A stretch of DNA of 25,602 bases from an uncultured delta proteobacterium (lineage in GTDB: Bacteria; Desulfobacterota; Binatia; UBA9968). The DNA is taken from positions 1-25,602 of the forward strand of contig CAWFJP010000025.1 in assembly GCA_963816145.1 (NCBI GenBank). Reading direction: 5' to 3'. Positions 87 through 22,614 of the stretch are shown here, piece after piece; the stretch's first letter is position 1, and each line of letters opens with the position of its first letter. The notes beneath the pieces are model-generated. The model was not told the origin of the DNA, ran no database searches, and saw nothing but the letters and a program-made list of their open reading frames with translations. Both the position numbers and the translations under genes were made by a program.

Positions 87-2480
87 TCAAGAAGCCACCG
101 AATTTGATCGGAAGTAATGGTTGGTTATACGACGCAGCCGAGCGACCAGGCCACGAATACGCAGAACCCGTCGTGCGATCGACAGCCCAACCAATGCGCC
201 CGGAATTCGCGAAACTCGCATACAGCCCTCAAGCCAATAACTTTCTTTGAGCGCGTCATAGAACCGTCGCGGCGTAAACACGAGCAAGGGGCTGATCTGA
301 GGCGATACCAAGGGCCGACATCGCGACGATCCCCAATCGAGAGAATGAGACAGATTTTTCAGAGCTTCGGCCTGCGCCGCCGTCGGTCGCAATAACAACG
401 GCGCCAGCCCACGAAGTGCTTCGGAGCGCAGAGTCGCCAAGTCAAAACCATCAGTGCTGTGATGGCAGACAAAGCTAGCGGCATAATCCAATATTCCAGC
501 CTGTAGAAGCCCCTGCTCCTGCGAAAGTTCTCCGCCTTCCTTACTCAACATCGGCGTAACTTGGCCATCGACCACGTCATACCCCAGCGTGGCCCCGTGT
601 GGCGCCGCAGCCGCAAGTTCAAAGAGCTCCAAGCAATGGCCAATCGCTTGTTCGGCACGTACGAGCCGTTTTTCATCGAAAAGGCACCCGGGCATAAACA
701 GACTGCGCGCCGAGAGCGAGTAGTCTTCATGGCGATACTTTCGACCGAAGTAGTGGCCAACAACCAAGGGAAACTCCGGATCATCGTCGAAAGCCTTCGT
801 TAAATTAGCTTGAATCGTCGCGTTCCAGCCGATGTCGACAAGCAGTTTCACTTGCTCAGGGCGAAAGAATCCTTCCTGAGCCATATAACCACGCAGGAGC
901 GTGCGCGCTTCCTGGGCACGGGCCTGCACCCGACTAGCGAATTCTCGATCCCTAAACAGATCAGCTTTTGCCGTTTCGTTGCGGTTTTCGAAATCGATTC
1001 CTAGATCGGCGAAATCCGCGGCATCAAGACCGAACGCCGCGATGCACTCAGCTAAAGTCGAATGGTGATTGCGATAAAACGCCAGATGCAACTCTCGCAG
1101 GCTCAACGTCCGAACCGCCGGCAGACTGGTAGCCAGCCGACTGACATATAGATAACGGTGCCGCGATTGGAATTGTTTTTTCAGAGCGGGAAACCTTGCA
1201 ATCAACAATTCATGAAGCCGCCGAAACAAATGTCCTTCGCGGGCTAGATAATAAATATCGGCAGCGCCAATTCGAGCTGCTTCTTGGATGACCTGAAGGA
1301 TAAATGCCGTGAACGCCGGGCCAAGAATATCATGGCCAATGCGGTAAAGTTCCGGTTGTTTAACCGTTGAAATTGGCGCTAATTGGTTCGGCGCCGTCAT
1401 TGGCCCGGCTTTCTGTGGTGCCACACTTGCCGGCGCCGACCGTTGCGTAAACTTACGCGCGATCTCGCGCCGGCGGCGCAGCCGTTCGATGTCGAAGAGA
1501 AATACAGCCGACACTCCGGACTTTAACGCACCGCGAATATCGCTCTCGTAAGTATCGCCGACATGAATCAAGCACCTCGGTTGAATGGCTTCAGTCTTGA
1601 GAATCTCCTGAAACAACCTCCCCGAATATTTGCCGACACCATACTCTGACGAAGGGTAAACTACATCGATCCACCGATTAAGTTGCAATTGCGTGAAGAG
1701 TTGCTGCAGGTGAGCCCGTTCGAGATAGGTGTCGCTTGAAGCAATAATCCGCTTACCGCGAGCTTTTAACTGCTGCAGTAGCTGCGGGATTCCCTCGGCG
1801 ACGCGCAAATGTTGCAATTCGAGATCAACCTCATACCGGACCAGTAGTTCGGTGTCTGAATCCGCTTGTTCGGTACTGAACAAACGGAAGAGCACCTCAT
1901 GAATCACCTCGGAAAGTTTGCACTCCGCGTCCGCGCCGCCGCTTTGCGCCAGGCGGCGTTGCCGCATTTCGCTCACGTTCCTTAGGTAAAGAAACAGGTC
2001 AGGCGTCACCGGGTAGCCTTGAGTCGCATATCGATCTGCGGCGAAATTGGCCGCTAAGCGCTTCAAGTAATCCGGCGGTTCGACGGTCCGATAAAGCAAC
2101 GTATCGAAGACATCAAAACTTACGATGTCAGCTTGGTCGCAGAGTTTTGCCATATCCGGCACACTGCCAAGGGTCCGAACTGAACCCACCGCCGCGTCCC
2201 TTGCCCAAGCAACGAAACGAAAAACTTGTCGTAGCCGATCTGGTAATTGGGTCAGAAATTGCCGACGCCAGCTCGCTGATGATTGGGCACTGTCGCTCTG
2301 TCGGCATTTTTCGGCATACTGACATCGCAATAGTGAAGTCTGATAGTTCTCGCCTCGCCGAGCAGCCGCAGCTTCAGTGTCGCCGTCGCGGCTTACCAGC
2401 CTATCATTGGGAGGCGAAACGAGCGGCGTCGGATCGTGAGCCGTGATTCGCCGCGCCAAACTACCGATGGTCGTGGTCAT
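87..2480 (-). CDS. HAD phosphatase + PRTase-like dual-domain protein, putative glycan ribofuranosyltransferase (PRP + gPRT type)
   Basis: HAD motifs SFDVFDTLL, SSDTY, GVGKYSG and HVGDTYESD. The C-terminal half has YYLAREG, YLYVSR and LLVDIGWNATIQ (PRPP-binding-like). Start moved from 2618 to ATG 2480, 4 nt after the Wzt stop, to remove the overlap; the true start could lie further downstream. Confidence 0.75.
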   Translation of the reverse strand: MTTTIGSLARRITAHDPTPLVSPPNDRLVSRDGDTEAAAARRGENYQTSLLRCQYAEKCRQSDSAQSSASWRRQFLTQLPDRLRQVFRFVAWARDAAVGSVRTLGSVPDMAKLCDQADIVSFDVFDTLLYRTVEPPDYLKRLAANFAADRYATQGYPVTPDLFLYLRNVSEMRQRRLAQSGGADAECKLSEVIHEVLFRLFSTEQADSDTELLVRYEVDLELQHLRVAEGIPQLLQQLKARGKRIIASSDTYLERAHLQQLFTQLQLNRWIDVVYPSSEYGVGKYSGRLFQEILKTEAIQPRCLIHVGDTYESDIRGALKSGVSAVFLFDIERLRRRREIARKFTQRSAPASVAPQKAGPMTAPNQLAPISTVKQPELYRIGHDILGPAFTAFILQVIQEAARIGAADIYYLAREGHLFRRLHELLIARFPALKKQFQSRHRYLYVSRLATSLPAVRTLSLRELHLAFYRNHHSTLAECIAAFGLDAADFADLGIDFENRNETAKADLFRDREFASRVQARAQEARTLLRGYMAQEGFFRPEQVKLLVDIGWNATIQANLTKAFDDDPEFPLVVGHYFGRKYRHEDYSLSARSLFMPGCLFDEKRLVRAEQAIGHCLELFELAAAAPHGATLGYDVVDGQVTPMLSKEGGELSQEQGLLQAGILDYAASFVCHHSTDGFDLATLRSEALRGLAPLLLRPTAAQAEALKNLSHSLDWGSSRCRPLVSPQISPLLVFTPRRFYDALKESYWLEGCMRVSRIPGALVGLSIARRVLRIRGLVARLRRITNHYFRSNSVAS

Positions 2481-2484
2481 CAGG

Positions 2485-4917
2485 CTATTTCTGCGTGAGC
2501 GGTTTGAGCACACTTTTATACAGCCGATATGCGAACGTCTGCCGCACTGCATCGGAAAAGATTTGCAATCGATCCGCCCTTTGCTGGAGCTCACCGAACA
2601 TTTGTTCAAGCTCGGCAAGTTGATGCCGAAGTCGGAATTCCACCTCGTTCATTTCAATCGTCTTGGCGTTCAAGGCGTTTTCAAGCTGCGTGACTCGCTC
2701 TTGTTTGCCCAAGTCCACGGTCAAATCGAGAAAATCTCGCACCGATTCGTGAATGTGACAATCGTCAGCGGAGCGATGCACATCACGCCGGCATTGTGAC
2801 CGCAACATCAGGTATAACATTTTAATTTCGCCGCATATCCTGTCGTTATCCAGCAATTCCCGAACCGCGCTGGTATGATGGCGCAATTCACCGGTTATGA
2901 TCGCGGGCATGCGCTCGATACCGTTCGGTTCTGGAAGCCGACAAAAACGTGCTAATCGCTGGATTTCCGCTTCAGCATCGACGAAGTAATCGTCATAAAA
3001 AGTAAACGCTACCGGATATCCGACGGTGTCGTTGAGCGCATCGCGCATGTAACGATGCCAGAGCTGAATACCGGCATCGACCGGCAAGCCGTTTCGATTA
3101 GCTAAAGACTTCGCGACATCCAACGGATTGCGAACGCAAATGACGAAGCGCAAGTTAGGCACCAACGATTTCCAAAATTCTAATAGAATCGTCGTGCGCG
3201 GTTCCTTCCAGCCCCATGGAGAATGGTTCGGGAAGGATGCAATCAAGGCCCTGGCCGTGGTGGTAATATTAATCAGAGCCGGATCGTTGGTCCAGCCGAC
3301 GTCGAGTCGCGGCGGGCTCTCCCATGCACCGCCAAAGTGACCAAGCAGTTGTTCATCAATTTGTAAAAACCCGGAATGCTCAAAATGACCCTCGGGGTTA
3401 CCCTCGTTAGGGCCAAACAGCTGTTCTTCAGGTCCCAAGTAGAGACCGCAGAGACTCAACAACCTGGCAACCATCGAGGTGCCGCTTCGATGCATGCCGA
3501 TAATGCAGATAACACCCGAGGTGGATTTGCGGTCAGATCGATCTCCGTCGATTGCCGCGGTATCCATATCACAAACATGCTGCGACCAACCGCGGTCTGA
3601 CTCGGGGTTACCGTTCATTGCCAACCGTTGGTCTGGTGTTAGAGTCCCCGCCGTCCAGCTCGTTGGCATGGCAAAGACCCCTCTCCCATCAGCTGGAGCG
3701 CTTTCAACTTGAATATTGAGTGGATAAGGCCATTGGTGCTCGGGCAACTCATCAACAGATTTCAAAAACACCGCCGCGTGAATCCCATAGTCGCCCTCGA
3801 CCAGACCCAAGTTTGGATAATCAAGCGTGATCTCGCCCTCGCCGATCAGACTGCCCAAGTGGACGCCCTGCCGCTCTGTGTTGATACCGTGGCAAAATAC
3901 GCCATCGCCACGGTAAATCTGAACGCGAAAAATCGGATTCAGTACGGCTTCTCGAGCAAAATAGTGAATCTGCACTTGCATTGCCGTGTGGGTACGAAAC
4001 AGATGTCGCGGATTCCCTGCACCATCAGTGACCCGCACCTCCGTAATATAGATCGGCAAGCCGGCAGCCGCATTGAGTAAAGAGTTGTTTCCATGCTCGG
4101 ATTGGGCGGCGACAGAGGTCGATGCCACGTTTGCGTACCTTCCGATGACCTGATCCGGCAAGCCGTCGGCAACAACTTGCCCCTGGTGTATTAGTACCAG
4201 ACGCTGTGCCACGCGTTGCGCCTCTGCGAGGTTGTGAGTCACGATGACAATGGTTTTTTTGGCCTGAATAAACTCATCGATCTTCGCATAACAGCGCCGC
4301 CGAAACGATGCATCACCGACAGCTAACACCTCATCAACCACGAGAATATCTGGGTCGGCATGGACCGCTAATGAAAACCCGAGACGCACGGTCATGCCAC
4401 TGGAATAGTGCTTTAGCGGCGTGTCGATAAAATTTCGCAGCTCGGCAAAATCTAAAATCTGATCGAAGTTTCTGTCGATTTGCTGTTTTGAAAGCCCCAA
4501 GATCGTGCCGTTTAGATAGATATTTTCCCGCCCGCTAAGCTCAGGATGAAAACCTGCGCCGAGTTCGATAAGTGCGGTCAGCCGGCCATCGATAAAAACA
4601 TCGCCCTCAGTCGGCTCGGTGATTTCAGCAAGGATCTTAAGTAACGTGCTTTTGCCCGAACCATTGGGACCGATAATGCCAACCGTTTCGCCTTTTTTGA
4701 TTTCAAGGGAGATATTTCTGAGTGCCCAAAGTTGGTTTGATGCGGGTTGGTCTTTGGAATGACGTGCTTTCCCCGCAGTCGGTTTAAGCAATTCGTCATT
4801 GCGTTGTGGCCCCGCAAATTTGGCAGCAATGGTCTCACGCAAACTTAACCCATGGCGACTCTTCCCGAGCTGGTAGAGCTTGCCGACGTTATGCACCCGC
4901 AGAGCGATATTATTCAC
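2485..4917 (-). CDS. wzt: Polysaccharide ABC transporter ATPase Wzt fused to Wzt_C carbohydrate-binding domain, sulfotransferase domain and C-terminal coiled coil
   Basis: Walker A GPNGSGKST, GFHPELSGREN, signature YSSGM, Walker B ILVVDEVLAVGD, H-loop VTHN. A beta-rich Wzt_C segment follows (ITEVRV...GDYGIHA), then IIGMHRSGTS, NPEGHFE, WGWKEPRT and CVRNPLDVAKSL (sulfotransferase), then a heptad-rich tail. Located directly downstream of wzm. Confidence 0.92.
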   Translation of the reverse strand: MNNIALRVHNVGKLYQLGKSRHGLSLRETIAAKFAGPQRNDELLKPTAGKARHSKDQPASNQLWALRNISLEIKKGETVGIIGPNGSGKSTLLKILAEITEPTEGDVFIDGRLTALIELGAGFHPELSGRENIYLNGTILGLSKQQIDRNFDQILDFAELRNFIDTPLKHYSSGMTVRLGFSLAVHADPDILVVDEVLAVGDASFRRRCYAKIDEFIQAKKTIVIVTHNLAEAQRVAQRLVLIHQGQVVADGLPDQVIGRYANVASTSVAAQSEHGNNSLLNAAAGLPIYITEVRVTDGAGNPRHLFRTHTAMQVQIHYFAREAVLNPIFRVQIYRGDGVFCHGINTERQGVHLGSLIGEGEITLDYPNLGLVEGDYGIHAAVFLKSVDELPEHQWPYPLNIQVESAPADGRGVFAMPTSWTAGTLTPDQRLAMNGNPESDRGWSQHVCDMDTAAIDGDRSDRKSTSGVICIIGMHRSGTSMVARLLSLCGLYLGPEEQLFGPNEGNPEGHFEHSGFLQIDEQLLGHFGGAWESPPRLDVGWTNDPALINITTTARALIASFPNHSPWGWKEPRTTILLEFWKSLVPNLRFVICVRNPLDVAKSLANRNGLPVDAGIQLWHRYMRDALNDTVGYPVAFTFYDDYFVDAEAEIQRLARFCRLPEPNGIERMPAIITGELRHHTSAVRELLDNDRICGEIKMLYLMLRSQCRRDVHRSADDCHIHESVRDFLDLTVDLGKQERVTQLENALNAKTIEMNEVEFRLRHQLAELEQMFGELQQRADRLQIFSDAVRQTFAYRLYKSVLKPLTQK

Positions 4918-4939: not shown

Positions 4940-5782
4940 TCAAAGAACATCGGCGATATGGCGCTCCGTACGCCGGAAATAAAAAACGCCGCTGATGAGA
5001 ATCACGAGAGAAATGGCCGCGGAAAACAACAATTTCCCATCAAATGCGATGCCCTTGCCCAACAATGCCCAACGAAACCCCTCAAGAATGGCAACCATTG
5101 GATTGAGACCGTAGTAGAAACGCCATCTCTCGGGAATCAAACTTGTGCTATAGGCCACAGGACTGATGAAAAACCATAACTGACTAAGGAAGGGAGTGAT
5201 AAGCCGGACATCGCGATATCTAACGTTGAGGGATGCTAGCCAAAGTCCAACGCCCAAGCCGAGAATCAGTGCGAGAAGTATGAAAACCGGCAATGCCCAG
5301 ACGCGGGGTGACAAGGGGATTTGATAAAAAGCCCAAAGCCCACCAAGCACTATCAGACAAATCGCGAAGTCAACCAAGCGACCCATGACAGCGGCTAGCG
5401 GAATGATCAGTCTAGGAAAATGGACTTTGATGAGCAAATTTTGATTTGCGATCAGACTTACGCCCGCTTCGGCAAATGAACTGGACACTAGCTGCCACGG
5501 CACCAATGCACAAAAATAATAGACTGGATATGCGACACCATCGGACGGCATCTTGGCAAGAAAACCGAACACAATACTAAACACGGCCGTAAACAAGAGT
5601 GGCTGCAGAGCCACCCAGGCGCCACCGAGCAGGGTTTGTTTGTAACGGACTTTGAGATCCCGCAGCGCTAAGAAATAGAGCAAATTCCTGCGCCCCCAAA
5701 CCGCGGCCATATCAACGGCAACCCAGCCTTGGGAGGGTCGAATAAATCGTGGGCCAACAGTTTGGCTACTATCTTGGAACAT
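4940..5782 (-). CDS. wzm: Polysaccharide ABC transporter permease Wzm (ABC-2 type)
   Basis: RDLKVRYKQTLLG..W..LQPL, LIKVHFPR, NVRYRDV, F.SPV.Y, LNPM..ILEGFR, terminal ADVL; several hydrophobic helices. Confidence 0.95.
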   Translation of the reverse strand: MFQDSSQTVGPRFIRPSQGWVAVDMAAVWGRRNLLYFLALRDLKVRYKQTLLGGAWVALQPLLFTAVFSIVFGFLAKMPSDGVAYPVYYFCALVPWQLVSSSFAEAGVSLIANQNLLIKVHFPRLIIPLAAVMGRLVDFAICLIVLGGLWAFYQIPLSPRVWALPVFILLALILGLGVGLWLASLNVRYRDVRLITPFLSQLWFFISPVAYSTSLIPERWRFYYGLNPMVAILEGFRWALLGKGIAFDGKLLFSAAISLVILISGVFYFRRTERHIADVL

Positions 5783-6056: not shown

Positions 6057-7295
6057 TCAACCTGCTCGCAGAAGGCCTGTGTAGAGTCCTAAATGATCCG
6101 CCAAAAACCGCTGCCGCGAAAAATGACGCTCAACTCGCTGCCGTCCTGCCACAGCCCAAGCCGCAAGGTGTTTTTCCTTTAACGCGACTTCGAGGCCGGC
6201 AACCGCCGCTCGGACATCACCTTTAGGGACAAGGAAGCCGGTCTGTCCATGTTCGACAACTTCGGGAATGCCACCCGTAGCAAAACCGATCATCGGAGTT
6301 TCCGTGGCCATGGTCTCCAGTATCGTTAGCGGCATGTTATCATCCAAGGGACAAAACAAAAAAACATCGGCAGCAGCAAAGAAATCGGCCTTCTTCCGAT
6401 CGTCGGTTAAATATCCGGTCTCGATCACCTCGATTGGGTCAAACGTTTGCCGAACTTCCGTTGCCATTTTCCCAACAACCAATACCAGTGGATCGATTCG
6501 CGGATAGCCATTTTTTAATACTTCAATCGCGTGAAGCGTCCCTTTGCGCTTGTCCGTGATGTCACCGGCAGACAGGAGCACAATCGGCTTTTTTGTTTGG
6601 ATGCCCAATTGCCCGCGGATCGCCGCCTTATTTAAGGGATGATAATGAGTGATGTCGATGCCGTAAGGAATGACTGTCAAATCGTTGAAAGTCGTTCCCG
6701 AAGCGTGAGCGGTCCTAGCCATCCATTCACAGGGCGCAACCACATGAATCTTTTCGCGCTGGAAACCGTTCTGTTTCAGCCGCAGCATCAAGCGGGTGAA
6801 ATCGATACCCTTGGATCGATCAAGCGGCCAAAGGTGCATCTGCGGACAAGAACCACAGCCGGTTTGATATCGGGCACAGTCCATCGGGAAAATGCATCCC
6901 CCGGTGAAGGCTGCATAGTCGTGGAACGTCCAGACCGTCGGTAGTCGTTGAGCCGCCAACCGCACGGTCAACGGTGAAATCGCCGAAGATAAATCATGAA
7001 AATGGACGAGATCGTAATTCATCCGACCATTCGCGATCCAAAGAACGATCGACTCCCATGGGATAATCTCCTGCAGCCCCAGACGTTGTGAGACATGATG
7101 GGCGAAACCTATCACTTTCCGTAACCGTCTGCCGCCATAGAGCGATTTCATGTCGGGCTGGAGCTCAATGGCACTGGAAACATAATGGTGGGCGGTATGT
7201 CCACTCTCTCGAAGCCAGACGCTGAGATCTTCCGCTACTCGACTGGCGCCGCCGCCAAACCTGTCAGCTTTGCTAATAATCGCTACTTTCATCAA
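6057..7295 (-). CDS. Glycosyltransferase family 4 (WcaC-like, with Cys cluster)
   Basis: N-terminal GGA, WTFHD..FTGGC, C..CP, DKRKG and DNMPLTILETMA..P..GF.TGGIPEVV (GT-B motif region). Confidence 0.9.
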   Translation of the reverse strand: MMKVAIISKADRFGGGASRVAEDLSVWLRESGHTAHHYVSSAIELQPDMKSLYGGRRLRKVIGFAHHVSQRLGLQEIIPWESIVLWIANGRMNYDLVHFHDLSSAISPLTVRLAAQRLPTVWTFHDYAAFTGGCIFPMDCARYQTGCGSCPQMHLWPLDRSKGIDFTRLMLRLKQNGFQREKIHVVAPCEWMARTAHASGTTFNDLTVIPYGIDITHYHPLNKAAIRGQLGIQTKKPIVLLSAGDITDKRKGTLHAIEVLKNGYPRIDPLVLVVGKMATEVRQTFDPIEVIETGYLTDDRKKADFFAAADVFLFCPLDDNMPLTILETMATETPMIGFATGGIPEVVEHGQTGFLVPKGDVRAAVAGLEVALKEKHLAAWAVAGRQRVERHFSRQRFLADHLGLYTGLLRAG

Positions 7296-7470: not shown

Positions 7471-8493
7471 ATGGGGCAACAAATAAAAATTTGGTTTCCG
7501 GCGATCCGCGGCGGCAGTGGCGTTGATATTCATACCAGTCGGCTAGCGCAAGCGCTGCAACATCGTGGAGTTGAAGCCACCGTCACTTGGTATTCGACCT
7601 ACTTTCAGTTTGCGCCATACCTGCTTTCGCAAATCGCCGCGCCATCCGGCGTAAATATCATCCATGCCCTCTCCTGGTTCGGGTTCGCATTCAAACGAAA
7701 CAACTTACCGCTAGTGGTCAGCGAGCAGCTCGACGTTCTCAATCCGATCTACCGGCCCTACAAAAGTATCGCGCAGGCGATATTTCACCAATTATTAGTC
7801 CGCCGTTTCATGACTCGATCCTTCGCTGCGGCAGGAGCCATTACCGCGGTGAGTCGTGCAACGGCCGCTAGTCTCGCCGAGACGATCCGGGTTGACTCCG
7901 CGCAGGTAATCACCAATTTCGTCGACACCGAAATTTTCCGCCCGCTCGACGGTCGGGCCAAGCCGGGAAGTCCTTTTCGGTTGCTCTATGTCGGCAACCT
8001 GACCAAACGCAAGGGTGCCGACTTACTCACACCGATCATGCGGCGGCTTGGCGCCGGCTTCGAACTGCGCTTCACTTCCGGACTACGTGACGGTAGTGTC
8101 GACGCTATTTCGGCGAACATGGTTACCCTCGGCAAATTGACCGGTGACAAATCCTTATTAGAAGCCTACCAAGCTTGCGACGCTCTGCTGTTTCCTTCTC
8201 GGCTCGAAGGTTTGCCCATCACCCCCTTGGAGGCCATGGCTTGCGGCAAGCCGATCATAGCTGCCCGTGTCTCGTCGATGCCGGAGGTCGTCGAAGACGG
8301 TGTCACTGGAATACTTTGCGAGACCAATAACGTTGAGCAATTCGCCGCCGCCTGCGAGCGCCTCGCTAGCTCACCGGTAGTCTTGCGACAAATGGGTGCC
8401 GCTGCACGCGATCGCGTCGAAACCTATTTCTCAGTGGCAGCGGTGATACCGCAATACATTCAATTGTACGAAAACTTGCTCGACGCTAGCTAA
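7471..8493 (+). CDS. Glycosyltransferase family 4
   Basis: LLYVGNLTKRKG, PSRLEGLPITPLEAMACGKP, PEVVEDGVTG. Confidence 0.92.
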   Translation: MGQQIKIWFPAIRGGSGVDIHTSRLAQALQHRGVEATVTWYSTYFQFAPYLLSQIAAPSGVNIIHALSWFGFAFKRNNLPLVVSEQLDVLNPIYRPYKSIAQAIFHQLLVRRFMTRSFAAAGAITAVSRATAASLAETIRVDSAQVITNFVDTEIFRPLDGRAKPGSPFRLLYVGNLTKRKGADLLTPIMRRLGAGFELRFTSGLRDGSVDAISANMVTLGKLTGDKSLLEAYQACDALLFPSRLEGLPITPLEAMACGKPIIAARVSSMPEVVEDGVTGILCETNNVEQFAAACERLASSPVVLRQMGAAARDRVETYFSVAAVIPQYIQLYENLLDAS

Positions 8494-8547: not shown

Positions 8548-9693
8548 TCAGCCGACATTTTCAGCTAGAACATTCTCATAGCGCGCCACGATTCTCGCCC
8601 ACCCAAATTCGCTCAATACCCTTTTCCTGCCGGCTTCGCCCATGGCGCCGCATTCCGGAGTGTCATGAAGCAAACGTACCAAGGCGCAACTGAGGGCAGC
8701 ATAATTCCCCGGCTCGACCAACAAACCTGTGACACCATCTTGAACCGCATCTGAAATACCGCCGCAGCGCGTCGCAACCACCGGCTTTCCCGCCGCCGCG
8801 GCCTCCAAAGCGACCATACCGAAGCCTTCGACATCCGAGGCTAAATCCAACACGGGTAACAGGACGACATCACACAGTGCATAGAGCTGAACCAACTCGT
8901 TATCGCTAACGGCTCCCAGGAGTTGCACAGGATCGGTAAGTTTCTGATTAGCGATCGCTTGGCGAATCTCGCTGGCCATATCGTCGTGATGCATCAACGA
9001 TTCCGTTGGATTGTCGCCGGCGATGACAAAACAGACTTCCGGCACTTGCTTGACGATATCGATCAGCGAATGCTCGATGAATTCTCTGACGCCCTTGCGC
9101 GGTGCCAACCGGCCGACAAAAAGAATGACCTTGCGGTTCGCGAACCCGCGTGACTGCTTGAGTGCCTCGGCGCTCGCTGCCACTTGGAAGCGCTGGCAGT
9201 CAACGCCGGGAGGGATGACCTCGATCGCGCTATCGGCCACACTTTTCTGCTGCGCCAACTTTGCCGTGTGATGGCTGTTGGCGATAACTCGATCGACGTA
9301 GCGCAGGCAGCGAACGACGACGCATTGATAGACCGAGTTACGATAGATTAGATCTAACCCATGGGCTTGAACGATCGCTTCTCGGCGAAACAGCCGGGCG
9401 AGAAGCAAAACGATTGGCGTCACCAAGACACTTCCACCGAAGATAATACGAATGCCGGGGTTGGCATGCAGCAGTGCAATCCCCTTCGTAAAGGCAAACA
9501 GAAAATAGCGCATCATGCCGGGCGCGGCGGGGCGAAAAACCATCTCCCGACCGGTGGTGAAGTTATTATCCGCAAAGGCCGTGAGCACCGACACACTATG
9601 TTTTTGACTCAAACCGGCACAGACGCTCGCAAGTAACTGCTCCATGCCGCCGCGCCTCGGCGGATAGTTCCACGTGACAACCAGTATCTCCAT
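8548..9693 (-). CDS. Glycosyltransferase family 4 (PimB-like)
   Basis: ILVVTWNYPPRRGGME, LFVGRLAPRKG, DVEGFGMVALEAAAAGKPVV. Likely start is ATG 9693; alternative TTG 9708 overlaps the methyltransferase stop. Confidence 0.92.
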   Translation of the reverse strand: MEILVVTWNYPPRRGGMEQLLASVCAGLSQKHSVSVLTAFADNNFTTGREMVFRPAAPGMMRYFLFAFTKGIALLHANPGIRIIFGGSVLVTPIVLLLARLFRREAIVQAHGLDLIYRNSVYQCVVVRCLRYVDRVIANSHHTAKLAQQKSVADSAIEVIPPGVDCQRFQVAASAEALKQSRGFANRKVILFVGRLAPRKGVREFIEHSLIDIVKQVPEVCFVIAGDNPTESLMHHDDMASEIRQAIANQKLTDPVQLLGAVSDNELVQLYALCDVVLLPVLDLASDVEGFGMVALEAAAAGKPVVATRCGGISDAVQDGVTGLLVEPGNYAALSCALVRLLHDTPECGAMGEAGRKRVLSEFGWARIVARYENVLAENVG

Positions 9694-9704
9694 CCTCGTG
9701 GTAG

Positions 9705-10481
9705 TCAACTCTTAATCGTACACAGATGATAGACTTGATACTGCCATTCAAGCGGCCAAAGAGGTAAGGCCAGCGCTTGGGCGGCGCGCATGGGCCAGGC
9801 GTGCCATGAGCCCAGAAAAATCCAAGACGGCGAGAGCACGTGCAGGTCCCGCCAGCGATAGCGCACTCGAAGACCGGCACTTTCAAAAAGCTTGCCCCAC
9901 TCGGAAAGCGCCCGGTGTTCTTCTCGAACATCGGCTTGTTGTGTCCCGGAATAGAGGCCCAAACGCAGCGGCAAGAATCCAGAATTAGGCACAAGCAGGA
10001 TAATTATTGCGCTCGGCTTGGCGACTCGCACCACCTCGCGCAACGCCGTGTCGGGGTCCAAAAAATGCTCCAACGCGCCCAAGCATGAAATCACATCGAA
10101 ATATCCATCGGCAAACGGCAATTGCTCGGCCGAACCGCAATGAAGATCGGCACCGGGAAGAGACTTGCGGCAAACCTCCAACGCCTTTTGCGAGAGATCG
10201 ATACCGGCGGGAATTGCTCCAAGTGCCGCGGCCGCGCCAAGCCACTGCCCCGTGCCGCAAGCGACGTCGAGCAAGCGCACGTCCTTCCAAGGTTGCAGCT
10301 TCCGAGCGAGCCGCCGATGGTGCGCCGGGATCATCACGCTCGCACTCACATCGGCGTAGTAAACCCGATCGTAAAACTCGCGAACTGCCTCCGTGTCCGG
10401 AATATTTTGCGTCTTCAGGTGTCGATCCACTAGATTAAGAGTCGGGCTGTCGGAAACGGTCCATCTGCGCGCCGTTGGCAA
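9705..10481 (-). CDS. Class I SAM-dependent methyltransferase
   Basis: LLDVACGTG (motif I), GIDLS, AEQLPFADGYFDVI, LEHFLDP..LRE..RV.KP. Start uncertain. Confidence 0.9.
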   Translation of the reverse strand: MPTARRWTVSDSPTLNLVDRHLKTQNIPDTEAVREFYDRVYYADVSASVMIPAHHRRLARKLQPWKDVRLLDVACGTGQWLGAAAALGAIPAGIDLSQKALEVCRKSLPGADLHCGSAEQLPFADGYFDVISCLGALEHFLDPDTALREVVRVAKPSAIIILLVPNSGFLPLRLGLYSGTQQADVREEHRALSEWGKLFESAGLRVRYRWRDLHVLSPSWIFLGSWHAWPMRAAQALALPLWPLEWQYQVYHLCTIKS

Positions 10482-11369
10482 CTAACCATCGTCATGCCTG
10501 CGGCCGGCCTCCTGGCGCTCCATGCGCAAAAGCGCAATCTGTTCGGAGATCAATCCCAACATGAAAATGATCACTGCCGTGGTCAAAGCGAACACCGACA
10601 TATTGGTGAAACGGTTCTGGGTCAAGTAGGTGTAGATGTAATTGCCAATCCCGCCGAGAAAGAAGAATACACTCACCGGTAAAAATACCCGAAACGGCGC
10701 AAACAAAGTCGCGATCTTGGTGATGATCAGCAGGAACCGAATGCCGTCGGTAACCAAGCTGATCTTGCTCTGACCGGCGCGGTAGAGGGTCTGGATCGGC
10801 ACATACTGGACGGTCAGCCCAGAGCGCAGACAGGCCAGCGTCAAAGTCGTCGGGTAGGAAAAGGTATTGGGCAGCAGATCGATGAAGCGCAGGGCGTCGC
10901 GCCGGCGAATCACCCGAAACCCCGAGGTCAGGTCTTGGACCTTGAAGCGCGTCACATAAGACGCCAGCAGATTGTAGACCATGTTGGCCAGGTTGCGATG
11001 CATGCGCAGCTTGGAACCTTTGGCGCGCGCGCCGACGACCATGTGATACCTGTCCGCGTCGGCCAAAAGTTTGGGAATGTCTTCGGGTTTGTGCTGGCCA
11101 TCGCCGTCCATCATGACGATGAATCGGCCTTTGGCGGCGCGCATACCGCTCTTCACCGCCGCGCCATTGCCGATGTTGTAAGGATGGCGCACGACGTTGG
11201 CGCCGGCCGCCATGGCGATCGCCGCGCTGCCGTCGTTGGAACCATCGTCGACGACGATGATTTCACTGTCGGGCATCCTGAGCGAATGAATCTGGCCAAT
11301 TAATTTTTTCAGATTCTCCGCTTCGTTGTAGACGGGAACGATGATTGAAGTTTCGACGGGGTTAGCCAT
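10482..11369 (-). CDS. Glycosyltransferase family 2, polyprenol-phosphate (DPM1-like) glycosyltransferase with two C-terminal TM helices
   Basis: SIIVPVYNEAE, VVDDGSND, N.GNGAAVKSG, MDGDGQH, VVGAR, DLTSGFR, R.GQSKI, then two hydrophobic segments. Confidence 0.93.
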   Translation of the reverse strand: MANPVETSIIVPVYNEAENLKKLIGQIHSLRMPDSEIIVVDDGSNDGSAAIAMAAGANVVRHPYNIGNGAAVKSGMRAAKGRFIVMMDGDGQHKPEDIPKLLADADRYHMVVGARAKGSKLRMHRNLANMVYNLLASYVTRFKVQDLTSGFRVIRRRDALRFIDLLPNTFSYPTTLTLACLRSGLTVQYVPIQTLYRAGQSKISLVTDGIRFLLIITKIATLFAPFRVFLPVSVFFFLGGIGNYIYTYLTQNRFTNMSVFALTTAVIIFMLGLISEQIALLRMERQEAGRRHDDG

Positions 11370-13143
11370 TCAGTTGATAGACTGCGTGGCCCTGGTCACG
11401 AAAGTTGAGCCGAAGCCGGCTGGCAACGAATTCGTTCCACAGGTGCGCTTGCTCCGCCGTCAAGTTGTTGCTCAAAAATCCGGTCAGGAGATCCTCACGG
11501 ATCAGCAGATGAGTGATCTGTTTTTGCCTGAGCGACTGTGCCAACTGTTCGATGCCTTTAGCGTTGCGAATGGCGCCAAGAAGAAATCCCGGCAGCTCGC
11601 CGCCGTCGTGAAAATAGTTTCTCTGACAATAATACGCTCTCCGCCCGACAAAGAGAAGATAAATTTTCGCATTCGTCGGTGTTTCCCGGTTAATGTAGCG
11701 AAACGCCGGATACTCCGGGAGCGTTCGCGTCAGATAGCCGTCGCGGCTTTCCGCGCCAACCAGATAAGGCCAGGGTGCCGCCGCCGCGACATATTTCCAC
11801 AGAAATGCGCCATGCCACGCGGCGCAGAGCAACAACCCAGTAAACAAAATCGCCGGTCGCTTGATCCGGGTGTAAATGTTGAACACTCCGTAAACCATCA
11901 GAATGACCAACGGCGGGACGATCGGCAACACATAGCGCACCCGCAAATCGACCAAGAATATCCCGTACAAAAACGTTAGCAGGGAAAAGCCGGCGAGCAA
12001 CTTCTTGTCGTCAGACCACTTTCCCCGAAACGCCCAGGGCAGCAACAAGATCAGAATCGGCGTCAGCACACCGTCGAAGAACTGCGGATTGTCGTCCCGG
12101 CCGGAGAAGAAAAGCCGCAGCGGCAGCGTGACAATCTGCCAGACGTCCTCGCCGTACAAGAGTTCGCGCTTGGCGAAAATGCCGATGCCTGCAAAGCTGG
12201 CCGCCTGCGCGCCCACGCCCGCCTGCGCGCTGAACCAACCGGGGAAGAACGGATAAAAAGGATTGCCGGTTTGCCACCAATTCTTGCCGAGCCAGGGGAA
12301 AAACGGCAGGAACGCGAGCACGCCAAATAGAGCGGTTTCGCCAATCGACGCAAAAAAACTTTTCCGCGGTGGTTTGGCCAAGACGAGGGCGAACAACATC
12401 GTGACTATAAGCGCTGCGACCAAACCATTGGGCTTGGTTGCTAAGGCGAACCCCAAAGACAAGCCGGCTAACGCGAGGGCGCCGAGGGCGTTGCGATCTT
12501 CCCGCCAGCGAAGGAGCAATAGTAGCGCCGCCGTGGTGTAAAACGTGATGCCGAGATCGATATAACCCCAATGACTGAGCCGCAAAATCACCGGCGTGGA
12601 GAGGAAGAAAAAGGCGCCGAGCAAGCCGTAAACCGGGTTCATCCGCCACGCTAAATACCCATAGAGAAGCAGTCCCGTGAGCGCGCCGTAAAGCGCGTGA
12701 ATCCATTTGGGCACGAAGTCATAGCCCCAATAAATCCAAGGCGTATAGAGCATGTCGACCAGCATCGGATAGTAGGCGTAGGGCGCCACCGGCACTTCGA
12801 CGATGCGCCCGGCATCGGCGTAGAGCTTGGGTATCGCCAGATGATGGGTCAGCTCATCACGGCTGGTCGGCGGCAAAACCCCGAGAAGAATTTCGGCGAT
12901 CAGAATCACCAAGATGCCGAACCAGATGCTCCGGCCGACCCAACCGGTCTGGGTAAACAGCGCAAAGAAGTTAGCGAGAAAAAATAGCAACGCCGCCGCA
13001 AGAACCGCGGCGATACCAAGATTGAGCAGCGCACTGTGAACAAAACCCGCCAAGCCGGCGAGCAAGTACACCGTCCCCGCCACCCCGAGCAGACAACCGA
13101 CCGCGCAAGTGCGCGTCAAGAGTTGTGAGAAGCGCTCGCCCAT
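11362..13143 (-). CDS. Multi-pass membrane GT-C-fold glycosyltransferase (ArnT/PMT-like)
   Basis: More than 10 hydrophobic segments, PPTSRDELTHHL after an early TM (acidic loop), YYPMLVD, YIDL, ATKPNG, TGNPFYP and RYVLP. Start set at ATG 13143 (MGERF); the ORF track extends it to 13293. Confidence 0.75.
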   Translation of the reverse strand: MGERFSQLLTRTCAVGCLLGVAGTVYLLAGLAGFVHSALLNLGIAAVLAAALLFFLANFFALFTQTGWVGRSIWFGILVILIAEILLGVLPPTSRDELTHHLAIPKLYADAGRIVEVPVAPYAYYPMLVDMLYTPWIYWGYDFVPKWIHALYGALTGLLLYGYLAWRMNPVYGLLGAFFFLSTPVILRLSHWGYIDLGITFYTTAALLLLLRWREDRNALGALALAGLSLGFALATKPNGLVAALIVTMLFALVLAKPPRKSFFASIGETALFGVLAFLPFFPWLGKNWWQTGNPFYPFFPGWFSAQAGVGAQAASFAGIGIFAKRELLYGEDVWQIVTLPLRLFFSGRDDNPQFFDGVLTPILILLLPWAFRGKWSDDKKLLAGFSLLTFLYGIFLVDLRVRYVLPIVPPLVILMVYGVFNIYTRIKRPAILFTGLLLCAAWHGAFLWKYVAAAAPWPYLVGAESRDGYLTRTLPEYPAFRYINRETPTNAKIYLLFVGRRAYYCQRNYFHDGGELPGFLLGAIRNAKGIEQLAQSLRQKQITHLLIREDLLTGFLSNNLTAEQAHLWNEFVASRLRLNFRDQGHAVYQLNG

Positions 13144-13301
13144 CAGACTCCGTTGCTGCTCCAGCGGCTGGCCGCCGCTGGCCCAAGGCGAGCCAACCCA
13201 CCAGGCTTCGCGTCGAGAAGAATAACGGCAGTCACCAATAGGAGCGGGGCAAACAAAAGATTTACGATTTTCGCCGGAGCGGAAATGGATCAAGTTTGTC
13301 C

Positions 13302-17869: not shown

Positions 17870-18262
17870 TTAGGAAGAGCAGCCCTTGCAGGTGCCGTAG
17901 AAGGCCAAGTGATGCGATGTCACGGTGAAGCCCTCCTCGGGAAGCTTTGCCGGCCGGATATCCCGATGGCTTTCGACGATCACATCGAAGACACGTTCGC
18001 AAACTTCGCAGATGAAATGCTGATGGCGCTGCACCAGCGGATCAAAATGTTGGGAGCGGCCGAGCATCAAGACTTGCAGTCTTTTTAAGGCAACCAGCTT
18101 TTGTAAGTTACGATATACCGTTCCGAGGCTGATGTTCGGCAACTTGCGCCGTACGCGATCATAGACTTGATCCGCGGTAGGATGAGACTTATCGTCTTTG
18201 ATGGCCTGCCAAACCATCGCCAATTGCCTGGTATTCCGCGCCGGCTTTTGGGTTGACGCCAT
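17870..18262 (-). CDS. Fur-family transcriptional regulator, PerR-like
   Basis: HPTADQVY, ISLGTVYRNL, FD...HQHFICEVC..VFD and YGTCKGC; the His/Asp ligand pattern matches PerR. Start ATG 18262, 2 nt after the DUF3501 stop. Confidence 0.92.
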   Translation of the reverse strand: MASTQKPARNTRQLAMVWQAIKDDKSHPTADQVYDRVRRKLPNISLGTVYRNLQKLVALKRLQVLMLGRSQHFDPLVQRHQHFICEVCERVFDVIVESHRDIRPAKLPEEGFTVTSHHLAFYGTCKGCSS

Positions 18263-18264
18263 CA

Positions 18265-18840
18265 CTAATCCGCCAAATCCTGCGCCAACGACTCCTGCAC
18301 TGCGGCGCAAAGAACTTTGCTGGCACGGTAGTTCGTATGGTCGATAACAATCTCAGCCGGCACGCCCGCGATGAAGGCTTGTCGGGCTTCCGCGCTGAAC
18401 ACAAACCGCACATATTGGACCGCGCTGATCTTATCCTCTTTGCTTCGCCCCTCTTCGAACCGCCCAGGAATTCGCTGTTCGCCAACTTTAAACATCAAGG
18501 CTTCGTCAATGCCGAGGAATTTCAGCAGCTCGTCGCGCAGGTGGGTTTGATCCTCAATCTCGATGAAAAGCGTCGCGCTCAGTTCGCCGGGGTTGGGAAT
18601 CAGCTCGTTGTAAACGGAAATTTCTTCGCGAATTTTATCGAGGTCGGTGATCCGTTCGGCGCGCAACATCTCTTGGATCTGAAAGATCACCGTGTCGCGG
18701 TTTTCGAATACCAGGGAAATATTCCGGCCCACCGCTACCCGGCGGAGCTTTTTCTTTTCGATGATCTCCCGGCGGAACTGCTCGCGCACATTTTCGTAGG
18801 CGGCAAATCCCAATATATCGTCAAGGGCAATTTTTTTCAT
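18265..18840 (-). CDS. DUF3501 family protein
   Basis: KK.RRVAVG, FENRDTV.FQIQEMLRAE, YNELIP, SATLFIE, SAVQYVRF; adjacent to rubrerythrin. Start at ATG 18840 (MKKIALDD). Confidence 0.9.
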   Translation of the reverse strand: MKKIALDDILGFAAYENVREQFRREIIEKKKLRRVAVGRNISLVFENRDTVIFQIQEMLRAERITDLDKIREEISVYNELIPNPGELSATLFIEIEDQTHLRDELLKFLGIDEALMFKVGEQRIPGRFEEGRSKEDKISAVQYVRFVFSAEARQAFIAGVPAEIVIDHTNYRASKVLCAAVQESLAQDLAD

Positions 18841-18857
18841 GAGTGGCAAATGCAACA

Positions 18858-18894
18858 GCGGCGGGTAGTTGAATGGCTTCGCGCTACCCGCCGC
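18858..18894. repeat. 11-bp perfect inverted repeat between rubrerythrin and DUF3501
   Basis: GCGGCGGGTAG-15 nt-CTACCCGCCGC. Confidence 0.8.
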
Positions 18895-18918
18895 CGTCAT
18901 CATTGACTAAGCTAGGTA

Positions 18919-19344
18919 CTAACTGCCGAGAGTATCGAGACCCTTGGCGAAGCGTCCGGCGTGAGACTTTTCCGCCTTGGCCAAAGTTTCAAACCATTCG
19001 GCCAATTCGGGCAACCCCTCGTCGCGCGCGGTCTTGGCAAAGCCCGGATACATTTCGGTGTATTCGTAGGTTTCGCCTTCCACCGCCGACTTCAGATTTT
19101 TCGCCGTGGTGCCGATTGCTACGCCGGTGCACGGATCGCCCACTTCTTTGAGAAAGTCGAGATGCCCAAAGGCGTGACCGGTCTCCGCCTCCGAGGTATC
19201 GCGGAACAAACCACCGACATCAGGGTACCCTTCGATATCCGCCACCCGTGCGAAATAAAGGTAACGCCGATTGGCCTGAGACTCACCCGCAAAGGCGCCC
19301 TTCAGGTTCTCGTGAGACTTGGTGCCAGCTAAACTTTTTGCCAT
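18919..19344 (-). CDS. Rubrerythrin, short aerobic type without rubredoxin domain
   Basis: [31 protein letters not shown] diiron motifs; no CxxC tail; RBS AGGAGG before ATG 19344. Confidence 0.95.
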
Positions 19345-19364
19345 AAAGCTTCCTCCTGTTAATT

Positions 19365-19383
19365 GATAATGATTACTATTATG
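19365..19383 (-). promoter_or_regulatory. Fur/PerR-type operator box
   Basis: Minus strand CATAATAGTAATCATTATC matches the Fur consensus GATAATGATAATCATTATC at 16/19, just upstream of the rubrerythrin RBS and downstream of a TTGACT hexamer. Confidence 0.8.
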
Positions 19384-19452
19384 AAGTGAATCATCGCAAG
19401 TCAAGAAAGCTCGTTACTTTTTTTAGCGATTCGACTCTGATATTTTCAGCTG

Positions 19453-22560: not shown

Positions 22561-22614
22561 CGGAGAATGGATGATCGCTATCTTCTAGCGCCGGTCCTCC
22601 AACCTCGACTGCTT

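Follow-up and report, generated by a model that had tools for sequence, protein, structure and literature searches.

A Wzt transporter ATPase joined in one reading frame to a putative PAPS-dependent sulfotransferase with a terminator-like layout

[quoted passage not shown] Coordinates refer to the window, the whole stretch of 25,602 bp that was analysed. With confidence somewhat short of even, we read this frame as a genuine fusion of two genes that are usually adjacent, wzt and the gene for a WbdD-like terminator with a PAPS-dependent ST domain, and propose that it may cap glycan chains with sulfate. An earlier, sequence-only reading had placed terminator, ruler and cap reader all on the transporter. 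The terminator-like layout stands, by comparison only, but within this ST family no second fusion to Wzt was found, and the two halves are separate in the nearest relatives.

ORF calling returned the single frame uninterrupted, as had been claimed, beginning at a GTG that is supported by the N-termini of homologues. The NBD and Wzt_C domain ascribed to its first half were also recovered: Pfam matched ABC_tran to residues 66-197 (E 2.3e-21) and Wzt_C to residues 290-405 (E 3.7e-13; 50.1 bits, cut-off 30.4), the latter defining the CBM at 3703..4050 (minus strand). Pfam, motifs and alignment with 8dku_A, the solved Aquifex aeolicus Wzt, together place the NBD at residues 57-265 (4123..4749, minus strand); the alignment itself covers residues 57-393 at E 6e-68. 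The ATPase motifs are intact, with Walker A (GPNGSGKS) at 83, the signature (YSSGM) at 171, Walker B (ILVVDE) at 191 and the H-loop at 227. Homology to unfused Wzt proteins extends to residue 430, with alignments stopping at 430 for P0003 and at 426 for P0004. On its motifs, its Wzt_C domain and the adjacent Wzm, the first half is a Wzt, and its CBM is predicted to bind a chain-end cap.

The second half begins with a PAPS-type ST domain (residues 469-700; 2818..3513, minus strand) containing an MHRSGTS loop, GHFEH, WGWKEPR and C-V-R-N-P...S. Pfam matched Sulfotransfer_3 to residues 470-662 (E 9.1e-10; 39.6 bits, cut-off 27) and also gave Sulfotransfer_1 (E 1.6e-5; 24.9 bits, cut-off 22). The motifs named beforehand are all in place, GMHRSGTS at residues 474-481 (window 3475-3498), WGWKEPR at 568-574 and RNPLDVAKSL at 596-605, and fall on columns that are invariant or at least 90% conserved in a 98-sequence family alignment. 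Every residue invariant in this alignment is retained by the ST; in the MHRSGTS loop conservation is 90% or more, and R596 and S604 of C-V-R-N-P-L-D-V-A-K-S are invariant. We take the loop to be the 5'-phosphosulfate-binding loop and the R...S motif to bind the 3'-phosphate. R-N-P-L-D-V-A-K-S aligns with R-N-P-K-D-V-A-V-S of human SULT1A3 in an alignment that is sub-threshold, and the PDB profile matches, to cytosolic sulfotransferases, are marginal (E 0.09), so that the substrate cannot be inferred from them. Two APS kinases were found in the genome (matches of 235 bits each), and hence PAPS can be made. By its motifs the domain is a member of the PAPS-dependent sulfotransferase superfamily.

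Behind the ST domain, the coiled coil previously put at about 2520-2705 was located at 2545..2694 (minus strand; residues 742-791, seven heptads) by family-wide periodicity together with a single-sequence scan, that is, by a heptad signal in sequence. Conserved hydrophobic positions are spaced 3-4-3-4 over these residues in the family alignment, the best period is 3.5 (power 1.21 versus 0.006-0.5 in five control windows), and Gly/Pro account for 1.7% of the region versus 9-18% in comparison. The basic/aromatic terminal helix of the sequence-only reading is likewise a family-wide feature (residues 792-808; 2494..2544, minus strand): Y797, R798, Y800 and P806 are each at least 90% conserved among the 98 sequences, and the helix is identical to the C-terminus of the closest stand-alone ST (P0372). 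It is predicted to be amphipathic, with a modest hydrophobic moment of 0.30 for the single sequence.

The fused gene lies within a glycan-synthesis locus. Directly upstream, across a 22-nt spacer, is its partner permease gene wzm (4940..5782, minus strand), coding for a 280-aa ABC-2 type permease (Pfam ABC2_membrane, E 1e-17) with partial NCBIfam matches to Wzm/KpsM. Downstream, a gene for a 797-aa protein (87..2480, minus strand) probably starts at ATG 2480, 4 nt past the stop of the fusion, and its product has a HAD hydrolase domain and about 470 aa that match no family. Beyond wzm, the locus holds GT4 glycosyltransferase genes at 6057-7295 (minus), 7471-8493 (plus) and 8548-9708 (minus), a methyltransferase (9705-10481, minus), a GT2 (10482-11369, minus) and a PMT_2/GT-C-like membrane protein (11362-13293, minus). 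The methyltransferase was considered as the counterpart of the terminator methyltransferase of relatives and was rejected (E 0.19).

The ST/coiled-coil/helix module belongs to a widespread family, with 721 matches of 203-648 aa and 669 of 445-1418 aa, in which it stands alone or is joined to methyltransferases or glycosyltransferases. Proteins of 590-611 aa combine methyltransferase, ST, coil and helix in a WbdD-like manner (P0031, P0122), and joins to GT2/GT4 modules, with the ST N-terminal, are found in many WbbB-like proteins of 700-1280 aa. The module thereby occupies the position of the kinase in the former and of the Kdo-transferase in the latter, and its layout is, by comparison, that of the known chain terminators.

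The module is often encoded immediately downstream of wzm-wzt. Stand-alone ST genes occur beside Wzt and methyltransferase genes, and in two genomes of the same genus (G003, G004) Wzt, methyltransferase and stand-alone ST-coil lie on one strand. Of 80 ST loci, drawn from many phyla, 17 had a Wzt-type ATPase and/or Wzm within 8 kb of the ST, against a rough chance expectation of about 1% (taking some five Wzt-like loci per 7.8 Mb). In the 8 loci examined, the ST gene is 0-2 genes downstream of Wzt, and Wzt_C was present on five of seven Pfam-scanned ATPases upstream of ST genes, as well as in G003 and G004. The module thus travels with CBM-bearing Wzt proteins, which is the company of cap-dependent export. 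One locus (L146) has Wzt and ST in one frame parted by a single stop codon, and another (L200) carries a fusion of ATPase and methyltransferase. As a separate observation, the Wzt P0004 and the ST P0246 are probably encoded on one 9,007-bp contig.

On the reading that we favour, the glycosyltransferases of the locus would lengthen an undecaprenyl-linked glycan at the cytoplasmic face of the membrane. The seven-heptad coil and the basic/aromatic end helix, the latter perhaps membrane-bound, would hold the ST away from the membrane, with the coil possibly serving as a ruler, while the 38-aa linker would tether the ST to the CBM. Sulfation of a sugar at the non-reducing end, the presumed acceptor, would stop growth, and the neighbouring CBM would bind the sulfated end for export of the chain by Wzm-Wzt. 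[quoted passage not shown] The export-licensing chain-end caps described in PMC9445017 are methyl, (methyl)phosphate and Kdo. It is conceivable, though we hold it with more reserve than the fusion itself, that sulfate constitutes a new class of terminating, export-licensing cap, and that ST writer, CBM reader and motor on one polypeptide couple capping, proofreading and export in cis, each Wzt dimer then carrying two STs.

A second type of Wzt-ST fusion bears on this proposal. A conserved protein of 690 aa was found in 21 of 80 cyanobacterial loci, mostly of Microcoleus, and its Atlas cluster has 65 members, all of which carry all three Pfam families. Like the window protein, the example from Microcoleus vaginatus HSN003 (L085) has ABC_tran, Wzt_C and a C-terminal PAPS-type ST within a single frame that is immediately preceded by wzm. 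Unlike it, the cyanobacterial protein has an ST of a Sulfotransfer_1-like family and lacks coiled coil and end helix; it is also kept across species, whereas the fusion in the window is a singleton. The two ST domains gave no phmmer match and an hhalign probability of 3.3%, and by these comparisons the cyanobacterial fusion is of independent, second origin with an unrelated ST. The idea that the genome of the window is itself cyanobacterial, so that the Atlas cluster would be its own family, was rejected, since Photo_RC is absent from it at a completeness of 99.5%. The literature searched yielded no characterisation of these proteins.

The absence of a coil from these fusions, and the frequent occurrence of sulfate along the chains of exopolysaccharides in cyanobacteria, count towards the alternative that survives best, which we nevertheless regard as unlikely: that the fusion in the window is real and its ST a decorator stationed at the exporter, sulfating along the chain or on some chains, ahead of loading or in the course of it, without terminating or licensing. 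The shortness of the window coil speaks in the same direction. So does the existence of pre-export end modifications that are dispensable for export, such as the pyruvate of K. pneumoniae O1, described as diversifying only (PMC11231755), and of capsules with internal sulfate (PMC11766843, PMC11641403). Against a decorator speak the coiled coil and end helix, described as a consistent mark of terminators (PMC11231755), and the place of the ST module where terminators have their kinase or Kdo-transferase; the CBM-bearing Wzt that the ST accompanies is also a marker of cap-dependent export.

The fusion of Wzt to this particular ST family is, among the matches and samples searched, a singleton of this genome. 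Contrary to what conservation of the architecture would have required, full-length homologues combining ABC_tran, Wzt_C and this ST were found only in the query's own cluster, among the 120 matches listed of 7929 and the 120 listed of 669. No such fusion occurred in 30 other genomes of the genus, in 80 ST loci or in the 7 long ST frames of a 401-genome phylum sample, and a tblastn search of 72,556 plasmids gave no record covering at least 80% of the 810-aa query. Searching with the whole protein recovered relatives at the level of the ATPase only (17 loci on genome contigs and 17 on metagenome contigs) and no close fused relative. A mixed full-length alignment, in which the ST P-loop had fallen on the Walker A motif, was excluded. 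The nearest relative of each half is a separate protein, P0003 for Wzt (455 aa, 66% identity) and P0372 for the ST (358 aa, 64% identity), so close relatives do encode two genes, as would be expected if the linker hid a stop; these relatives, however, come from other genomes and not the same one. The sequence-only reading knew of no characterised example, which agrees with the literature searched (main texts), where neither a sulfate cap nor a fusion of Wzt and ST turned up; the architecture as such is not unique, given the cyanobacterial proteins.

The halves are joined by a polar linker of 38 aa (residues 431-468; 3514..3627, minus strand), shorter than the 45 or so residues estimated earlier and corresponding approximately to a Wzt tail plus the N-terminus of a stand-alone ST. 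Its methionine codons, Met434 and Met451, are indeed not preceded by a Shine-Dalgarno sequence, but this is uninformative since the true GTG start has none either. Within the linker, the sole homopolymer of at least four bases is a CCCC run (3604..3607, minus strand; codons 437-438). One additional C in this run, a point absent from the sequence-only reading, would yield a 449-aa Wzt ending at TGA, followed after 1 nt by the ATG of a 360-aa ST.

These products match the sizes of the relatives, 441-455 aa for Wzt and 358 aa for ST, and relatives of both halves were all unfused among the searches made. It could therefore be argued, though we think it rather improbable, that there are really two genes, a Wzt and a stand-alone ST-coil terminator operating like the unfused systems, and that a C was lost from a C5 run, whether through a fault in the consensus or by neutral slippage in the very recent past. 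The assembly does contain frame-broken genes (one of three RND pumps, one of eight loci for aldehyde dehydrogenase and a few among 90 AMP-binding matches), and one of its frame breaks sits exactly at a CCCC run.

Set against this, the exact 810-aa protein is recorded by NCBI, Logan and ENA on two contigs, the window and one of 292,336 bp. Its identity on the second, differently assembled contig argues against assembly error, with the caveat that the two assemblies may share reads. No stand-alone protein beginning at Met451 or at Met434 is present in a collection of 15 billion proteins. Moreover, NRPS frames of 2,800-4,328 aa are intact in the genome, indicating that random indels are rare, whereas the lesions concentrate in a few genes, as true pseudogenes would, and neither the RND break nor the aldehyde dehydrogenase break falls at a homopolymer. 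A run of four bases is also short for miscalls. Systematic homopolymer error was considered and not established, one of three characterised breaks being at a run. Mis-binning of the contig was rejected; its tetranucleotide distance equals the median of 60 windows and its composition is typical of the bin.

It is very unlikely that the ST acts instead on a lipid-linked primer, a lipid or a protein, or is a dead scaffold, for although its marginal PDB relatives leave the substrate uninferable, its PAPS-binding motifs are all intact and invariant and its tight linkage to wzm-wzt and glycosyltransferases recurs across phyla.

If a sulfate-capping fusion is real, several consequences follow. Having writer and reader naturally fused would be Rosetta-stone evidence that, at the transporter, both work on one and the same chain end. 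Physical coupling of the exporter to enzymes that make caps, as also in the Microcoleus ST and the L200 methyltransferase, would be a general and previously unrecognised design principle, and the conserved cyanobacterial fusions offer a second, sturdier system for the same idea. Sulfate would join methyl, (methyl)phosphate and Kdo as a chemically distinct, anionic signal, and the coiled-coil sulfotransferases, a very widespread family so far uncharacterised, would be accounted for. The fused polypeptide could also allow joint reconstitution of capping, cap recognition and export. Should the fusion prove a one-base accident, the locus would remain a clean example of a sulfotransferase-terminator.

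Among known systems, the wb(salmo) locus of Aeromonas salmonicida carries Wzt, a 216-aa sulfotransferase-domain protein and WbbB as separate genes, with the sulfotransferase-domain gene between wzt and the WbbB-type polymerase-terminator (PMC4483657); this likeness is one of description. According to its authors, the O-antigen structure contains no sulfate, and they leave the function undecided. This counts against a sulfate cap, although a sub-stoichiometric sulfate end group may have been missed.

The WzmWzt of A. aeolicus is like the window system in having NBD, a jelly-roll carbohydrate-binding domain (CBD) and wzm upstream. Its CBD reads a 3-O-methyl sugar and, unlike in the window, no enzyme is fused after it. 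The methyl pocket (Leu300, Thr346, Ala348, His350) corresponds to Gln333, His380, Ala382 and Phe384 in the window protein, flanked by Arg331 and Arg336, in a region of low identity that makes this a lead only.

Close parallels are also found among the terminators themselves. WbdD of E. coli O9a and K. pneumoniae O3, described as chain terminator and molecular ruler, shares with the window protein the order of catalytic domain(s), C-terminal coiled coil and C-terminal membrane or partner region, as well as a wzm-wzt locus with a CBM-bearing Wzt (PMC3482155, PMC11231755), and the relatives P0031 and P0122 have a methyltransferase at the N-terminus, where WbdD has its own. The window protein differs in having a PAPS sulfotransferase, with no sequence relationship, where WbdD has its kinase, in a coil of about 50 residues versus a WbdD C-terminal domain of about 250 (PMC3482155), in its covalent junction to Wzt and in missing the adjoining methyltransferase of relatives. 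Pfam and NCBIfam scans of the fused protein returned no kinase, WbdD or Kdo-transferase family. WbbB of K. pneumoniae O12 and ORF6 of K. pneumoniae O7 unite terminator, coil and polymerase in one protein, and the 700-1280 aa ST proteins with GT2/GT4 modules follow the same modular logic (PMC11231755). According to that paper, no other terminator enzyme was known to carry a CBM, save for a predicted one in ORF6-O7. In the window, by contrast, the partner of the putative terminator is not a polymerase but the exporter ATPase with its CBM. Judged from these sequence comparisons, the ST module resembles WbdD and WbbB by layout and is not a member of either by descent.

The reverse-strand interval 2485-4917 is a single open frame of 810 codons, as the sequence-only reading had it; the window covers contig C25 from end to end, in a 7.8-Mb assembly of 31 contigs (G000). 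Pfam placed ABC_tran at residues 66-197, Wzt_C at 290-405 and Sulfotransfer_3/_1 at 470-662 of the product. All of its ATPase motifs are intact, and residues 57-393 match the solved Aquifex aeolicus Wzt (E 6e-68). Immediately upstream is wzm and, beyond it, genes for three GT4s, one methyltransferase, one GT2 and one GT-C-like membrane protein; this is an ABC-transporter-dependent glycan locus. Since G000 carries two APS kinase copies, PAPS can be made. Downstream, a 797-aa HAD-domain gene (87-2480, reverse strand), with a probable start 4 nt past the fusion stop, leaves less than 87 bp before the end of the contig; its HAD-family hydrolase domain covers residues 119-326, and its last ~470 residues gave no Pfam or NCBIfam match. 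The window also holds, with no relation to the fusion, genes for a Fur-family regulator, a DUF3501 protein and a rubrerythrin in series (17870-19404, reverse strand) and for a PIF1-like helicase that carries HTH_40 at its C-terminus (22567-24564, forward strand).

Using residues 441-810 only as the query, we found 721 relatives of 203-648 aa for the sulfotransferase (ST)/coiled-coil module, and the 120 listed either stand alone, at ~320-410 aa, or are fused to a methyltransferase. Among these the stand-alone P0372 (358 aa, 64% identity) is the best match, and it shares its last six residues with the window protein. In a 98-member family alignment, the MHRSGTS loop, WGWKEPR and C-V-R-x-P...S, at the sites of the ST motifs that the sequence-only reading had picked out, proved to be either strictly invariant or conserved at 90% or above. 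All are present in the window protein, and the same holds for GHFEH and the end-helix Y-R-x-Y...P. The proposed coiled coil was likewise supported across the family: conserved hydrophobic positions are spaced 3-4-3-4 over residues 742-791, with a best period of 3.5 (power 1.21 vs 0.006-0.5 in five control windows) and 1.7% Gly/Pro. Past residue 791 the spacing shifts to a 4-4-4 stripe, up to residue 807. A 22-residue block of about three heptads (769-790) is absent from about one third of the aligned members, so the stalk differs in length among them by steps the size of heptads. G000 encodes the ST domain a second time (contig C2, 339365-340111, forward strand; 47% identity), in a 315-aa frame without coiled coil or end helix, and short versions like it are found in five genomes of the genus.

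A domain-architecture check recovered the window fusion and no conserved fused homologues of its ST family, leaving it a singleton among the matches listed. In whole-protein and module searches, ABC_tran, Wzt_C and ST occurred together only in the query's own cluster, among the matches listed, and an exhaustive representative search gave no junction-spanning best stretch in the best 150 of 324,029 rows. The two two-stretch rows scanned, P0240 and P0242, are double-ATPase proteins. The ST was found in 10 of 31 genus genomes, in a long frame in G000 only, and in 14 of 401 phylum genomes, where none of the seven long ST frames carried an ATPase. The nearest Wzt relatives, the unfused P0003 (66%) and P0004 (56%), both end 11-22 residues beyond residue 430.

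One rival is that there are two separate genes, one base away from the frame observed. The CCCC run at 3604-3607 is the sole such run in the linker; one added C would end Wzt at a TGA after 449 aa, 1 nt ahead of the ATG of Met451, which would then start a 360-aa ST, both product sizes being as in relatives. Broken genes do occur in G000: one of three RND pumps (contig C24, 55496-57074), one aldehyde dehydrogenase with several lesions (C3, 518123-519518) and a few of 90 AMP-binding matches; an adenylation-domain gene is shifted at a CCCC run (C31, 113146-114181). The three located breaks represent pseudogenes or else errors left in the assembly, and the RND pump and aldehyde dehydrogenase breaks lie away from homopolymers. 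NRPS frames of up to 4,328 aa are unbroken in this very NRPS-rich genome (the 90 AMP-binding matches; contigs C3, C10, C17, C29 and C31). NCBI, Logan and ENA all record the exact 810-aa sequence; two contigs carry it, of which the longer is 292,336 bp, and stand-alone readings of the ST half were absent from the protein collection searched. We consider the fusion likely to be true to the organism.

Elsewhere, the two genes are often neighbors. The same-genus genomes G003 and G004 have the order Wzt, methyltransferase, stand-alone ST-coil; the unpublished G005 has a similar order but is not used as evidence here. In 17 of 80 loci from many phyla, the ST has a Wzt-type ATPase and/or Wzm nearby (flanks of at most 8 kb). 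Across the eight loci examined, the ST lies downstream of Wzt at a distance of 0-2 genes, and five of their seven Pfam-scanned ATPases have Wzt_C. At L146:6567-9083 (labelled a Nitrospirota MAG), a 429-aa Wzt and a 407-aa ST share a frame with one stop codon between them; the ST starts two codons after this stop, leaving the pair one point mutation short of a window-like fusion. At L200:6532-7989 (labelled a Gammaproteobacteria MAG), a further case of an enzyme fused to the transporter, the ATPase in the Wzt position carries a SAM methyltransferase domain in place of the carbohydrate-binding module (CBM); the gene after it encodes a 1015-aa ST + 2xGT2 protein. The calls for three stand-alone STs (P0246, P0373 and P0374) start within or just past the MHRSGTS loop and are therefore truncated at the 5' end, and P0246 and P0004 have the same 9,007-bp figure for their longest contig, suggesting that the Wzt/ST boundary overlaps or is untidy in other assemblies as well.

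A 65-member ESM Atlas cluster has ABC_tran, Wzt_C and Sulfotransfer_1 in every member. At the DNA level, a conserved 690-aa Wzt with C-terminal sulfotransferase, wzm upstream, was found in 21 of 80 loci (L085:1001-3073 and 20 others within L066-L097), all 21 labelled cyanobacterial and mostly Microcoleus, including M. vaginatus HSN003; the literature searched held no paper on it. The cyanobacterial fusion lacks a coiled coil, whereas the window fusion has one. Its ST gave no phmmer match to the window ST and an hhalign probability of 3.3%, and is unrelated to it at the sequence level; a sulfotransferase has therefore been joined to Wzt at least twice.

The best-supported reading, in which we infer every functional step past domain identity, takes the ST half as a chain terminator that is tethered to the cap reader on the transporter. 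Its other rivals are that the ST decorates the chain rather than terminating it, or acts on another acceptor. Within the CBM (3703-4050), Gln333 and His380, flanked by Arg331 and Arg336, align in a low-identity region with the pocket that binds the methyl group in A. aeolicus Wzt, and such polar and basic residues could fit an anionic cap; the F/I-R-V-Q-I/M-Y/F-R motif is kept in the closest Wzt relatives.

In the literature searched, which covers few subscription papers, those that mention Wzt with sulfotransferase described no fusion, none matched WbdD with sulfotransferase, and related terms led to neither a sulfate cap nor a Wzt-ST fusion. The stem "sulf" is absent from PMC11231755 and PMC9445017. 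Known layouts do recur around the module itself: 669 matches span 445-1418 aa, and among the 120 listed it is fused to N-terminal methyltransferase (P0031, P0122 and others) or GT2/GT4 modules. These methyltransferase- and GT-fused forms have the layouts of the coiled-coil chain terminators WbdD and WbbB/O7-ORF6, as set out in PMC11231755 and PMC3482155.
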